Source of the DNA: Escherichia coli
GTDB lineage: Bacteria; Pseudomonadota; Gammaproteobacteria; Enterobacterales; Enterobacteriaceae
Length of the DNA stretch: 64,000 nucleotides
Direction: 5' to 3' (one strand)
Assembly: GCF_013315695.1 (NCBI RefSeq)
Contig: NZ_CP054353.1
Each line of letters opens with the position of its first letter. Position 1 is the first letter of the stretch. Below the pieces are notes generated by a model. The model had not been told where the DNA came from, ran no database searches, and saw nothing but the letters and a program-made list of their open reading frames with translations. The position numbers were made by a program, and so were the translations under genes. This document shows positions 55,610 through 61,051 of the stretch, in pieces.

Positions 55610-56320
55610 TCAGGGCAGATTTTGCTCCTTCTTTGCACTCAACCCGCCGTAATCATTTATCGTCCGCCAGGCGACATGACACGGTGTTATAGCCTGACAC
55701 CAGCTTGTCTGACGCTGGCTTTTAGGTGGCACAACTCCCGCATTACTTAACGCTTTACCATTTACGCTCACCTGAATCAGGTTAATGTAGTAAGGCGTTG
55801 GGTTAGTGAGTTGTACACCCTGCGAATTCCGTGTCCAGCGTAATTGTTGATAAGCTTCCAGCGGGTCGCCCGGCAAACCTTCGGGTCGCCAGAACAGTTT
55901 AAATACCGAGCGCATCGCCACTTTTACGCTCTGATTTTCAACTTTGCCGGATGGCACGCTGGCAATGCTTAACTCAAATAGCGTTTCGCGATCCACGGGC
56001 AAGATGTCGCTTTCCGTTCTCAGCAAGCGCAATGTGCCTGTAGTACCGGGCTTCAGGAGAATAAGTGGCGGAGCGGCCAGTAATGGTGCTGGTACTGTCG
56101 ACGCTTCACCCCCAGCCCAACGCGTTGGGCGATTGATTTTACTGTTAATAAGCCAGGATTCCTGACTGGTATTAGTCAGTGAAATAGATATCGAATCTCT
56201 GTCTGCCGGAAAGATAAATCGCGTTCCGCCGACCACCACTCCTGCCTGCAATTCACTCGCCACCAGCAGCGATAAAACGGCGAAAATCAAGAGCGCCAAT
56301 CTGTTCCACGTATTAGTCAT
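55610..56320 (-). CDS. ycbF: Periplasmic pilus chaperone (PapD-like)
   Basis: Chaperone N- and C-domains; start at MTNTWNRLALLIFAVLSLLVA signal peptide. Confidence 0.85.
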   Translation of the reverse strand: MTNTWNRLALLIFAVLSLLVASELQAGVVVGGTRFIFPADRDSISISLTNTSQESWLINSKINRPTRWAGGEASTVPAPLLAAPPLILLKPGTTGTLRLLRTESDILPVDRETLFELSIASVPSGKVENQSVKVAMRSVFKLFWRPEGLPGDPLEAYQQLRWTRNSQGVQLTNPTPYYINLIQVSVNGKALSNAGVVPPKSQRQTSWCQAITPCHVAWRTINDYGGLSAKKEQNLP

Positions 56321-56828
56321 AATGAAGTACAAATGTCGCGCTGGCATTCACTTTACCCGACTGCACATCGCTATTGACAGGTCGCAATTGCGCGTAAAAA
56401 GTTAATGGCACCTTACCGCTATGTAGGCTGTAGTCTTTACTCGCCTGGTTAAGCGGAATCAATATCTTCGCATCATCCAGAATTGCAATTGCCAGCCCAC
56501 TGGCTGCATCCGTACCACTTTCAATGGACAGCATTTCGCTCTGTACTCCGTCGGGGGTTCCTGAAAAGGTGACGTCAACCGTGCTGGCATCTGTTCCGCA
56601 ATCCTGCAAATTAATGATGAACGATTTCTCCGGGCCATAATTCCCATGAGAAAAACGTGTCAGCGAGACGTCGCCTAACTGCACATTGATTTGCTTGCTA
56701 TCCTGTGCCAGCACGCATGTATTACGGCGAAACGATCCGCTAATGTTGACCGTGCCATCATGGGCAAATAGCTCACAGCCCCCCGTTAATCCCAGTAAGA
56801 ACAGAATCCAGATTGTCTGTTTCAACAT
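56313..56828 (-). CDS. ycbV: Fimbrial-like subunit
   Basis: Signal peptide plus fimbrial subunit-like domain; internal start MLKQTIWILFLLG. Confidence 0.8.
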   Translation of the reverse strand: MLKQTIWILFLLGLTGGCELFAHDGTVNISGSFRRNTCVLAQDSKQINVQLGDVSLTRFSHGNYGPEKSFIINLQDCGTDASTVDVTFSGTPDGVQSEMLSIESGTDAASGLAIAILDDAKILIPLNQASKDYSLHSGKVPLTFYAQLRPVNSDVQSGKVNASATFVLHYD

Positions 56829-56835
56829 CACTCCT

Positions 56836-57378: not shown

Positions 57379-57389
57379 ACGTTCACATA

Positions 57390-58460
57390 TCAGTCAAAGT
57401 TTATTCTCACCGTTGCTGTGGCTTCAAAGCTCCCGGTTTCCGGTGGTACACCTGTCGTGCTGACCGGATAAACATTCATTCGAGCGAAGCTGTCCGCGTC
57501 GTCAGGGATGGATAGCGGCAGTGTGCCACCGGCAGGCGAAATAATGTTGTTTTGGCTGTCGGTGACCACAACACCGACACCTGGTCGTGATGTCTTGATT
57601 GCCTGAGGATAATCGGGATCACTGGTTGCCGTCAGACTCAAATTAACATTAACCAGCTCTGCGTTTCCGGTATTACACCTGACTGGAATTGAGAGTTCTG
57701 CCGTTCTGGATCCAAGCGGTTTATGCCCTACAACACGGAAATTGGCAGCAAATACATCCCCCAAATCAACCTCTATTGTCTCTCCAGAATTGACAGAACA
57801 TGAGCCAAGTGAATTAATCGTACCAGACAGGTAATACACTAAAACCGGTGTACCTGTAGTCGTGCAGGAATCACTTGCGGGTATGTTGTAACACTCATAT
57901 AGTCGCGCCAGCGCCATAGGAGGAATGACGACCGAACCGACAAACGGCTGCAATATTTTCAGTGAAAAACTTCCGCTATTGCCGCTTGCCCCCTTGCCGC
58001 CCAAACGTTGACCACCGGGATCGCAAATATGCCATCGGGTATCACTTCCTGTACCGAGATTTTCAAAAGGTACGGCCGAAGGTGTGTTACCTTTCACTCC
58101 TAATAGCACCTTTGCGGCAAGATAATCGTTAATTTTGTACCAGTTGTCGCCCAAATAAACTAACGGAGAATCCGCAGCGAATGCCCATAGACCACTTCTG
58201 ACATTGTCTTTATCGCAATCGCAGGAAACATAATAATCATTCGATTCACTCCACTGATAAAATTCATCTTTGACTTTTCCAGCCGTATTCTCTTCCTCCT
58301 CCAGGGTTTTAACGCCAAAATTGACGCCAATATACGGATTCCCCTGAGTGGTATGACACTGCCCGGTATAAGCGGCGGCATGAAATCCCCACAGCATTAA
58401 AACAGCAGTCAAAAGAAGCCGGAGTCTTAACACACTACTATCCCCTGAAATTATTCGCAT
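57390..58460 (-). CDS. elfG: Fimbrial adhesin-like protein
   Basis: 356-aa ORF with signal peptide, downstream of the usher. Confidence 0.85.
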
Positions 58461-61051
58461 ACTGAATCCATCCGCGTAATCGCAGCGTTAATTTGTTGTT
58501 CGGTAAGCTCGTAACTGATATGACAAATTTGATCGGGAGCGTCGCCCCAGCGTACAGTTATCGTTCCCTTCGCCGGCAAACCAGACATATAGAGCGAACC
58601 ATCATCATCAATGATACCGCTAATTGTTTGTGCGCCATCCAGTGTTGCCATTGCACCAAATCTCAGCGGCATACCCTGCTTTGATGTTTTCATTAATACC
58701 CTGGCCCCCGCATGGGCATTGAACTCCGCCAGAACCAATGCCCCTTTGGTGGGAACCACGTTTACTACGGCATTTTCAAGATCCACGTTACGTTTTAACG
58801 ACGCCGCATCAAGTGCAATTCGATTTTCCCGATAAGAAGTGGCATAAGGCACAACGGTATATCCACGCCAGTCAGTTTTCAGCCCGGTGCTGTTCGCCAC
58901 ACGAGTATTTTCGGCGCCTGGCGCGGCAATCAGGACATTAGTTTCACCCAATGATTGACCCAACGTAATACCCTGCGAATGGGCAACTAAACTGCCTGAA
59001 AGAGCGTAGTTCAGTTGTTGTTGACTGCCATTATCGCTGTAGTTGTAGCCCACTCGAGCATCTGCAAACGCCCCTTTGTAGTCCATGCTGGCGCTACCAT
59101 TAGCCGTTTTCCCCTCGCTGTTATATCCCTGTTGCACGCTGTAGCTCAGATTACCGTCATCGAGTAGTGTCTCCGTTAAACCCAGGTTTTGTGTAGTGTG
59201 CCCTTCGTTATCGATACTGGTATTAGAGGTCATCCAGGCGTAATTTTTTTTCCTGGTATAGCTATCATTACTTTTGGGGAGCAACAGATTGAGCGGCAGG
59301 GAAAAATTAAGTGCAAACACCTGGTCAGCGTCAGGTTGACCACGGGACTTACTGTAGTTCCAGGAAACCCCCAGCGAGAGATCTTTAATTTGCGTGTTGT
59401 AGCCAAACTGTAATAGCCGATCCTGTTGATCGGTATGCCAGTAAGTTTGCTGGCTACCGCTTAAATAAAACGAACCGTACTCGCCTAATTGCTGGGAGAT
59501 GTTGACCTGCAGTTTGCCACGTTTGGTGTAAAACAAATTGTAATAACGCGACCACATTGGCGTATCTTCATCATCACCGTCATTAAATTCGTAGCCATCC
59601 ATGTGTTTATACATAGTGTCGGAAAGGGTGTAGAAACCCGACGTCGAATAGCGGTAGCCCATCAATTGAAAGTTGGTGCCCAATTGGTTGAGCGTTTTGG
59701 CATACAGAAAACGATATGACTGCCCTTTATGTTCACTTTGGTCTGCCAGCGTACTTTTAGCTTGGGTCGCGTCGAACGAAATTGCTCCGAAATCGCCGAG
59801 GTTAAAACCCAGACCAAACATAGCGGCACGGTAATATTCAGCATATTGCCCTCCGCCATACCAGGTCGTTCCCCACGGCCCCCCCCATTGCAGCGTGGCC
59901 TGAGCAAATTTACTTTCTTGCTGGTCATTACTATTGGTTCTGTATTTCGCCAGCGTCACCGCATATTTGATGCGTCCCTGACGCTGGAGTAATGGCACGC
60001 TGGAAAAGGGCACACTGTAACTATTGACACTACCGTCAGCTTCTTTGATTTCAACCAACAAATCACCACTCGACGACGTAGAGTAGAGATCACTAATCTC
60101 AAAAGCGCCAGGCGAAACATAAGTTTGATAGATGGTGTAACCATTTTGCTTAATCGTTACCTGTGCATTGCTTTTGGCGATACCACGCACCACTGGCGCA
60201 AACCCTTTCAAGCTGTCTGGCAGCATGTTGTCATCTGACGCCAGCTGCACGCCACGAAAGCTGACGCTATCAAAAAAATCGCCTGCCGTATAATCATCAC
60301 CGACGGTCAGTTCGCCTTTTAATGGAATCACCGCCCGCTGCAAATAGCTGCTGAGATTCTTCCATTCTGCGGTTTGGCCACTACTGCGACTCCATGTTGA
60401 ATTGTTGCGCAATCTCCATGGGCCTAAATTAACGCCACTGTTTAAATTCAGAAAATAGCTGTCGCCAGAATCACTACCTGCGCTGCTATGAATACTGTTA
60501 GCCCCGCTAAATGAATATCCCAGTAATAGCGCGTTGATCCCTTCATCCCAACGTTCAGGGGGGACATAACCACGAGCGTTACTTTTGATGGCGATTTGCG
60601 GTACTGAAATTTCCAGACGGAGTTTATTCACATTAAAAGTTACGCTGGCATCCGGAATAATTTCCGCCAATGGCGCACACGCTTGTTTATCCAGTTGTTT
60701 AAAAGCCGGAAACGCATCAGTATTCACGCCCATTGCATCCAGGCTTTCAGTCGTCAAACAGGCGGCAATCCCCTTCTCTGGCGTTATCTCAACAAAATTG
60801 ACGTTGCGCGTATCTACAATTGTCTGATTCAGAACAATATCGACTCGATAAACCCCTGGCGTTATTTTTTGCCCTTTTTCGAAACGGGACAAATCAGCCA
60901 CCATTGAGGGATCATCTTTGAAAAAGGCTGGATCGAACCAGGTTTCAGCTTGTGCATTGAACGCTGCCGACACAAACACCACCAGCCCACCAATAAACGA
61001 TGGCACTCCACCAGAGCTTAACAGGCTGTGTTGTCGTTGAGTTCTATACAT
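58451..61051 (-). CDS. elfC: Outer membrane fimbrial usher
   Basis: 866-aa ORF with signal peptide and usher beta-barrel. Confidence 0.92.

Follow-up and report, generated by a model that had tools for sequence, protein, structure and literature searches.

A cryptic elf fimbrial operon of Escherichia coli reduced to an elfC-ycbF remnant, very probably by IS1 insertion and adjacent deletion

The analysed window, a stretch of 64,000 nucleotides from an Escherichia coli genome, contains within the pyrD-ssuE interval five closely spaced genes of a chaperone-usher system, followed on the ssuE side by a fragment of elfD and by an IS1 element. The features are reported in Table 1. The locus corresponds to the elfADCG-ycbUVF operon for ELF/Ycb fimbriae (K-12 b0938-b0944; O157:H7 ECs1021-1028) and, like it, lies between ssuE and pyrD; the retained genes agree with those of K-12 in their order, lengths and domain architectures. 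Compared with these operons, elfA is missing, together with 50 codons at the start of elfD and, from the intergenic promoter region, the elfA-proximal 222 bp; an IS1 occupies their place. Two near-identical genomes were used for comparison: AF3 (NZ_OZ547117.1), where the operon is intact, and the sister genome MSB1_4I.

Table 1. Features of the elf locus in the window, with positions referring to the whole stretch.
Feature	Position	Strand	Description
ycbF, second periplasmic chaperone	55610-56320	-	Intact, 236 aa; 97.5% aa identity to K-12; PapD_N and PapD_C domains
ycbV, fimbrial subunit	56313-56828	-	Intact, 171 aa; Pfam Fimbrial domain; 97.7% aa identity to K-12
ycbU, fimbrial subunit	56836-57378	-	Intact, 180 aa; Pfam Fimbrial domain; 93.9% aa identity to K-12
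elfG (ycbT), putative two-domain tip adhesin	57390-58460	-	Intact, 356 aa; 89.9% aa and 84.5% nt identity to K-12
elfC (ycbS), outer-membrane usher	58451-61051	-	Intact, 866 aa; PapC_N, Usher and PapC_C domains; 97.6% aa identity to K-12
elfD (ycbR) 3' remnant, cognate chaperone	61076-61628	-	Codons 51-233 and stop codon
IS1, complete, 768 bp	61629-62396	-	Inverted repeats at both ends confirmed by direct reading; transposase oriented towards elfD and elfC
IS1 insB'	61644-62147	-	ORF
IS1 insA	62066-62341	-	ORF
Deletion junction	62396/62397		blastn alignment breaks exactly here; both flanks 100% identical
Remainder of the ssuE-elfA intergenic region	62397-62529	+	133 bp of 355 bp, bounded by IS1

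All five surviving genes start with ATG, are free of internal stop codons, have exactly the K-12 lengths and align to their K-12 counterparts without gaps, with amino acid identities between 89.9 and 97.7%. Gene order from ssuE to pyrD, including the minor subunits and the two-domain adhesin, is that of K-12; elfC and elfG overlap by 10 bp, ycbV and ycbF by 8 bp, and the remaining gaps measure 7-24 bp. Reading frames, lengths, Pfam domains and spacing thus confirm what the first-pass annotation had claimed, namely that these genes are full-length and tightly packed. The extent given there for the cluster, 56313-61051, had to be corrected, as it starts at the ycbV stop codon and so excludes ycbF (55610-56320). 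In the usher, each of the three domains scores above its Pfam cut-off and the length is the same as in K-12, with a dN/dS of 0.04 relative to that strain. Pfam assigns residues 211-356 of ElfG to the Fimbrial (pilin) domain and finds no match in the N-terminal half of the protein. Longer reading frames are possible for two genes: an upstream start at 56347 gives the longest ORF of ycbF, 245 aa, matching the RefSeq annotation, and the longest ORF of ycbV extends to 56876, for 187 aa.

Residues 51-233 of ElfD match the AF3 protein at 100% by tblastn, and residues 1-50 are missing. The remnant therefore lacks the signal peptide and the first beta-strand, and its PapD_N match begins at profile position 22, positions 1-21 being lost. 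An intact elfD-type PapD-like chaperone adjoining the usher is absent, and the second chaperone, ycbF, is intact. No elfA was detected by blastn in the 64-kb window, where tblastn of ElfA matches only the paralogue ycbV, at 26% identity. The earlier statement that the upstream genes are gone holds for elfA, absent by blastn and tblastn of the window, and fails for elfD, which is truncated and keeps codons 51-233.

The loss corresponds to a 999-bp segment, of which the 64-kb window retains no part. Apart from the paralogues ycbV and ycbF, blastn and tblastn revealed no second elfA/elfD copy in the window, and the sister genome contains no second copy either, as the deleted segment occurs there only once; the median across 4,035 E. 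coli genomes is also one copy. An intact elfA-elfD copy elsewhere, which the first-pass annotation had set against its own reading, was thus found neither in the window nor in MSB1_4I.

The IS1 is the only copy in the window and is 100% identical to that of MSB1_4I, which is annotated as an IS1A-family transposase with a programmed frameshift; its terminal inverted repeats are imperfect. The first-pass annotation had mentioned neither this complete element (61629-62396), which adjoins the cluster and is the cause of its truncation, nor the loss of the operon promoter region. No target site duplication of 8-9 bp surrounds the element, whose left flank is CGTACACCC and right flank AGCCCTTTC. An IS without a target duplication is usually explained by an adjacent deletion or by recombination between IS copies (PMC11708052), and the missing duplication is expected after an adjacent deletion. 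On the other side of the element, the ATG of ssuE is at 62530, so that IS1 now lies 133 bp upstream of this gene. The exact IS1/ssuE junction was found in none of 5,426 complete RefSeq genomes, where the matches represent other IS1 events at the same locus. The exact junction is known from a single assembly.

Gene content, breakpoints and a series of three states can be read directly from the comparison. AF3, with the intact operon, differs from the window by 1 mismatch in 9.5 kb; elfC, elfG, ycbU, ycbV and ycbF are 100% identical to their AF3 counterparts, and AF3 and MSB1_4I have the same protein accessions for all five genes, ycbF included. In MSB1_4I, IS1 interrupts elfD at the position and in the orientation seen in the window, flanked by a 9-bp target duplication, CGTACACCC, of which the window retains the left copy only. 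Window and MSB1_4I are colinear; 4 mismatches were counted over 49 kb, the stretches 49000-62396 and 62397-64000 are 100% identical, and the sole structural difference is the absence from the window of 999 bp next to IS1 (L001 13398-14396 in MSB1_4I). The missing DNA comprises the second copy of the target duplication, the 5' end of elfD, the whole of elfA and 222 bp upstream of elfA. The IS1/elfD junction is common to the two genomes at 100% identity, and the other IS1 end is joined to sequence located 999 bp further on.

We infer from this series the following order of events. IS1 would have inserted into elfD at nucleotide 150, generating the 9-bp target duplication, a state kept in MSB1_4I; the ssuE-facing end of the element would then have become fused to a position 133 bp upstream of ssuE, with deletion of 999 bp. 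The second step would most simply be an IS1-mediated adjacent deletion, occurring via intramolecular transposition. The locus is thus very probably a stranded remnant of the chromosomal gamma-1 chaperone-usher operon elfADCG-ycbUVF (ycbQRSTUVF), left by an IS1 insertion followed by an adjacent deletion.

IS1-mediated adjacent deletions were reportedly first described by Reif and Saedler in 1975, in the E. coli K-12 gal region. The window shares their features: the IS stays in place with one junction as it was in the parental insertion, its opposite end now abuts a new site close by, and the intervening DNA and the target duplication have disappeared. No difference in kind is seen; both the parental (MSB1_4I) and the pre-insertion (AF3) states are here available as sequenced genomes.

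The same end product, with the same biological outcome, could be generated by a longer route, in which another IS1 landed some 133 bp upstream of ssuE, in direct orientation, and RecA-dependent recombination then removed the interval together with one copy. Recombination between IS copies often explains missing target duplications (PMC11708052), and in the EC20 group of genomes an IS1 has inserted independently only 1 bp away from the window junction, with duplication GCCCTTTCT at -132 to -124, so that the junction site is a demonstrated IS1 target. The EC20-group element is, however, in the opposite orientation, none of the loci inspected had an IS1 copy on each side of elfA, and one event more is needed than for an adjacent deletion. 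This route is accordingly rated as rather unlikely, and less likely than intramolecular transposition.

Comparable events are found in other genomes. IS1 deletions starting from the same intergenic region reach elfD in EC09 and HCP4S3_I4, elfC in TUM1881, elfG in ET82 and 2017.11.01CC, and ycbF in VE-T9; in AS19, an E. coli B derivative, an IS1 is located within elfC. In all seven, the same element has inactivated the operon at the same locus, and the architecture of EC09 and HCP4S3_I4, consisting of IS1, an elfD 3' remnant and elfC-ycbF, is that of the window. Their breakpoints differ from those of the window, which makes them independent events, and several show a larger loss of the operon or extra stop codons, the latter affecting elfC of HCP4S3_I4 and ycbU of TUM1881. 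The survey by Wurpel et al. (2013; PMC3559732), which is based on fewer genomes and catalogues disrupted chaperone-usher operons across E. coli, reports Ycb for phylogroups A, B1, D and E and no orphan ushers; the usher of the window, by comparison, keeps the ycbF chaperone and subunit genes, and has lost the major subunit and the adjacent chaperone.

The ssuE-elfA intergenic region is AT-rich (28% GC), and at least ten distinct IS1 breakpoints fall between -74 and -264 relative to ssuE, two sites having each been used independently in two lineages. It may tentatively be proposed, at somewhat less than even confidence, that this region and the 5' end of elf form an IS1 hot spot, repeatedly seeding nested elf deletions in unrelated lineages. 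If so, either IS1 would be targeted to DNA bound by H-NS or IHF, or selection would favour the loss of a cryptic fimbria that carries a cost, and the window would represent one freshly caught step; the recurrent IS1 events could be used to ask whether mutational bias or selection drives the loss of cryptic fimbrial operons.

Genes elfADCG-ycbUVF are known to form one cryptic operon, silenced by H-NS and activated by SlyA, which binds the 355-bp ssuE-elfA intergenic region (PMC5797941). Of this region the deletion removed 222 bp upstream of elfA, leaving the ssuE-proximal 133 bp, and the cluster is thus predicted to lack the DNA where its own operon promoter should lie. In a promoter scan of 60900-62600, the only candidate on the elf strand is contained in the IS1 end (62389-62362, minus strand), and the total number of candidates does not exceed that of shuffled sequence. 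Weak read-through from this promoter-like site, or an internal promoter, could nevertheless express elfC-ycbF.

After the adjacent deletion, elfC-ycbF would be left without promoter region, major subunit and cognate chaperone, so that presumably no Elf fimbria can be made, and the genes would be expected to decay as pseudogenes. As far as the sequence tells, no secondary decay has yet occurred in the five genes, which are still intact because the event is very recent. Relaxed selection on the remnant was looked for and discarded as a line of evidence: dN/dS values relative to K-12 range from 0.04 to 0.24 for the five genes, reflect the history before the deletion and are uninformative for the remnant, since the five genes show no difference from those of the intact AF3. 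The idea of a cryptic fimbrial operon caught in decay, put forward in the first reading, is borne out by its correspondence to a documented cryptic unit (PMC5797941), by the loss of its 5' end in the IS1-associated 999-bp deletion, by the identity of its genes to those of an intact relative and by the secondary stop codons already present after similar IS1 deletions in other lineages.

The remnant might in principle still be functional, if ElfC and YcbF exported ElfG, YcbU and YcbV as a short fibre, if another chaperone-usher system supplied subunits and a chaperone, or if the usher alone served as a surface heparin-binding factor. The five genes are intact, with a chaperone (YcbF) and the usher retained, and the orientation of IS1 would direct any read-through into elfC; the element is, however, classically strongly polar, the promoter region is deleted, and intactness, given the 100% identity to AF3, follows from recency and makes no statement on selection. 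Moreover, stop codons have arisen in elfC or ycbU of other lineages with similar deletions. Heparin binding and an effect on invasion have been reported for recombinant YcbS (ElfC), but in K-12 knockouts of ycbQ (elfA) or ycbR (elfD) each lower invasion despite the presence of ycbF, while a ycbF knockout does not (PMC4914927). The ElfD and YcbF chaperones, only 34.6% identical, are therefore not redundant. Ycb fimbriae assemble when the whole operon is driven by a foreign promoter (PMC7098969), and assembly of a surface fibre has been shown from the complete operon only (PMC7098969, PMC5797941). A functional remnant is accordingly considered very improbable. Complementation in trans, as envisaged in the first reading, is likewise unlikely, given the loss of the promoter region, the single elfA/elfD locus of the sister genome, the divergence of YcbF from ElfD and the K-12 knockouts (PMC4914927).

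An assembly artefact, in which a genome similar to MSB1_4I or carrying two IS1 copies lost the 999 bp through wrong repeat resolution, would account for a junction unique with respect to 5,426 complete genomes and placed exactly at the end of a multi-copy repeat, but is hardly credible, as the junction is base-clean with a complete 768-bp IS1, the window is continuous through the element, pointing to a long-read or finished assembly, and equivalent IS1 deletion structures in at least six independent finished genomes make the structure biologically routine.

The locus is a case of ordinary, very recent gene decay, produced by a known kind of event and of little importance beyond careful annotation, although the AF3, MSB1_4I and window series provides a tidy natural example of an IS insertion turning into a deletion within one clone. 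The five genes are better annotated as the stranded remnant of an inactivated operon than as the Elf/ELF adhesin virulence factor, as which they would be scored by virulence-gene screens counting matches to elfC or elfG.

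The chaperone-usher locus at 52-64 kb of the window is elf/ycb, in reverse orientation relative to K-12; a megablast search of positions 52000-64000 in 5,426 complete E. coli genomes supplied the gene names and showed the K-12 placement, with pyrD and ssuE on either side. Five genes, elfC, elfG, ycbU, ycbV and ycbF, start with ATG, contain no internal stop and have exactly the K-12 length; their products align without gaps to the K-12 proteins at 89.9-97.7% amino acid identity. The Pfam architectures are complete: ElfC has PapC_N, Usher and PapC_C, ElfG (356 aa) a Fimbrial domain at its C-terminus (residues 211-356), YcbU and YcbV a Fimbrial domain each, and YcbF PapD_N and PapD_C. 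Overlaps measure 10 bp between elfC and elfG and 8 bp (or 35 bp, according to the start chosen) between ycbV and ycbF; the remaining gaps are 7-24 bp. By ORFs, K-12 lengths, domains and spacing, the first-pass annotation was correct in describing elfC-ycbF as full-length and tightly packed; the span it gave, 56313-61051, covers the other retained genes and leaves ycbF outside. The longest ORFs of ycbV and ycbF correspond to 187 and 245 aa, compared with 171 and 236 aa for the curated K-12 proteins; the long form of ycbF is used in most RefSeq genomes, the short one in K-12.

Features of the elf/ycb locus in the window
Feature	Position	Strand	Remarks
ycbF	55610-56320	minus	ORF; alternative start 56347
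ycbV	56313-56828	minus	ORF; longest ORF to 56876
ycbU	56836-57378	minus	ORF
elfG	57390-58460	minus	ORF
elfC	58451-61051	minus	ORF
elfD remnant	61076-61628	minus	553 bp; residues 51-233 and stop codon; upstream of elfC
IS1, complete	61629-62396		768 bp; adjoins elfD remnant; both terminal inverted repeats readable

The upstream genes had also been reported as gone. This holds for elfA, as neither the gene nor any piece of the deleted DNA was found across the 64-kb window, and not for elfD, whose remnant persists but has lost its signal peptide along with PapD_N profile positions 1-21. The neighboring IS1, the only copy in the 64-kb window, has insA and insB' oriented towards elfD; the ssuE start codon (62530) begins 133 bp downstream of 62397, the first base past the element. 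What the locus retains is a remnant of the Elf/Ycb operon: usher, subunits, adhesin and synteny are preserved, while major subunit, cognate chaperone and promoter region are lost.

Three near-identical genomes represent successive states of the locus. In AF3 (NZ_OZ547117.1), separated from the window by a single mismatch over 9.5 kb, the operon is complete. MSB1_4I (NZ_LR898874.1), the closest genome, aligns colinearly to the window, with 4 mismatches over 49 kb and none at 49000-64000, and shares with AF3 the accession numbers of the five downstream proteins; it carries IS1 at elfD nucleotide 150, in the same position and orientation as in the window, bordered by a 9-bp target duplication, CGTACACCC, and retains the start of elfD, elfA and all 355 bp of the intergenic region. 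The window shares the IS1/elfD junction and lacks the adjoining 999 bp (13398-14396 of the MSB1_4I locus), in which lay the other copy of the duplication, the start of elfD, elfA and 222 bp upstream of elfA. Its IS1 is flanked by CGTACACCC and AGCCCTTTC, hence no target duplication is present. These states indicate the order intact operon, IS1 insertion, IS1-adjacent deletion: IS1 would have inserted in elfD, an adjacent deletion then proceeding from its ssuE-side end. As in textbook IS-mediated adjacent deletions, one parental junction is kept, the other end lies at a nearby site and the duplication is lost. The same product may be generated by recombination between two IS copies (PMC11708052), and a two-step route, in which a second IS1 was acquired before such recombination, is possible: in EC20 and its relatives IS1 inserted independently, in the opposite orientation and with duplication GCCCTTTCT, at a site 1 bp away from the window junction. 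The one-step adjacent deletion is favored over this route.

Coverage of at least 80% is reached by the elfC-ycbF block in 4,007 and by the elfA/elfD-5' segment in 3,979 of the 5,426 genomes, so that at most ~28 genomes (~0.7%) could have a 5' truncation of the window type. The ~1,350 genomes giving no match are consistent with the report that Auf takes the place of Ycb in phylogroup B2 (PMC3559732). Among the complete genomes searched, the IS1/elfD junction occurs in MSB1_4I only, and the IS1/ssuE junction in none of the 5,426. IS-disrupted chaperone-usher operons are a routine, catalogued category (PMC3559732); operon and mechanism are both well known, and only this particular allele is new.

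Ycb belongs to the gamma-1 class (PMC7098969), and elfADCG-ycbUVF is described as a single cryptic operon under H-NS silencing, with SlyA as an activator that binds the intergenic fragment between ssuE and elfA (PMC5797941). Fimbriae and biofilm promotion result only when a foreign promoter drives the operon (PMC5797941, citing Korea et al. 2010; PMC7098969). The deletion takes the elfA-proximal intergenic part, where the operon promoter should lie, and also removes the gene for the major subunit and, from the cognate chaperone, the signal for secretion. All retained genes match those of AF3 at 100% identity, and are intact owing to the recency of the event and not because they are maintained; their low dN/dS against K-12 (0.04-0.24) reflects selection preceding the deletion. 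Lineages that independently underwent similar IS1 deletions already have secondary stop codons annotated, in elfC of HCP4S3_I4 and ycbU of TUM1881. The first-pass view of a decaying operon is thus supported, and now has a mechanism in the IS1 insertion and subsequent deletion seen in near-identical genomes. Its alternative, complementation in trans, is unlikely, since only one elfA/elfD locus exists in MSB1_4I, YcbF and ElfD share only 34.6% identity, and in K-12 ycbQ (elfA) and ycbR (elfD) knockouts each lower invasion despite the presence of ycbF, whose own knockout does not (PMC4914927). The elfA/elfD-5' segment occupies a median of 1 and a maximum of 2 places per genome in the 4,035 genomes carrying it. 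IS1 is classically polar; weak read-through into elfC-ycbF from a predicted promoter-like site within IS1 (62389-62362) is conceivable.

Other IS1 events at the locus, met through the two junction searches, whose queries are biased to one IS1 orientation, were mapped in K-12 coordinates. Independent lineages have their breakpoints clustered in the 355-bp ssuE-elfA region (window 62397-62529; L004 and L006-L013, further E. coli loci). Relative to the ssuE ATG, simple intergenic insertions are found in PSJ-36 (-74/-81), the EC20 group (-124/-132) and 22F46 (-146/-154), and deletions of varied length run from intergenic breakpoints into elfD in EC09 (-81) and HCP4S3_I4 (-120), elfC in TUM1881 (-227), elfG in ET82 (-108) and 2017.11.01CC (-264), and ycbF in VE-T9 (-150). 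Two sites were used independently by two lineages, -81 (PSJ-36, EC09) and -132/-133 (EC20 group, window). Simple insertions also occur in elfD (MSB1_4I, HCP30S3_I2) and elfC (AS19, an E. coli B derivative). The clustering may denote an IS1 hot spot or parallel elf loss; IS1 prefers AT-rich targets, a preference matched by the GC content of the intergenic region (28%, versus 51% for the whole window). The one lead of mild interest is that IS1 has eroded the locus repeatedly, in nested fashion, in different lineages. In AS19 the independent IS1 (L002, the AS19 locus, 11820-12587) lies at elfC nucleotide 380-387 with an 8-bp duplication, so that the elf operon is inactivated in this widely used laboratory lineage too.

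On the other side of IS1 (window 62397-63105), ssuE has lost the distal 222 bp of the regulatory region shared with elfA, which is SlyA-bound and H-NS-controlled (PMC5797941); with this loss and the adjacent IS1, regulation of the sulfonate-utilisation operon ssuEADCB may be altered. Window 1-49391 contains no further fimbrial genes or second IS1; it is ordinary core chromosome, colinear with MSB1_4I with 4 mismatches (rutG, wrbA, agp, cbpAM, torSTRCAD, cspGH, appCBA, hyaABCDEF, tRNA-Ser, yccA to ompA, matP, fabA, rmf, pqiABC, uup). Divergence from K-12 is mosaic, nucleotide identity being 84.5% in elfG (dS 0.75), 94% in elfC, 94.7% in ycbU and 97-98% in ycbV, ycbF and pyrD. The elfA/elfD-5' segment falls into two identity classes, with 2,287 genomes at 95-99% and 1,549 at 80-90%. 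Together the two patterns suggest separate classes of alleles, or else recombination with its centre at the genes for the adhesin and the major subunit.
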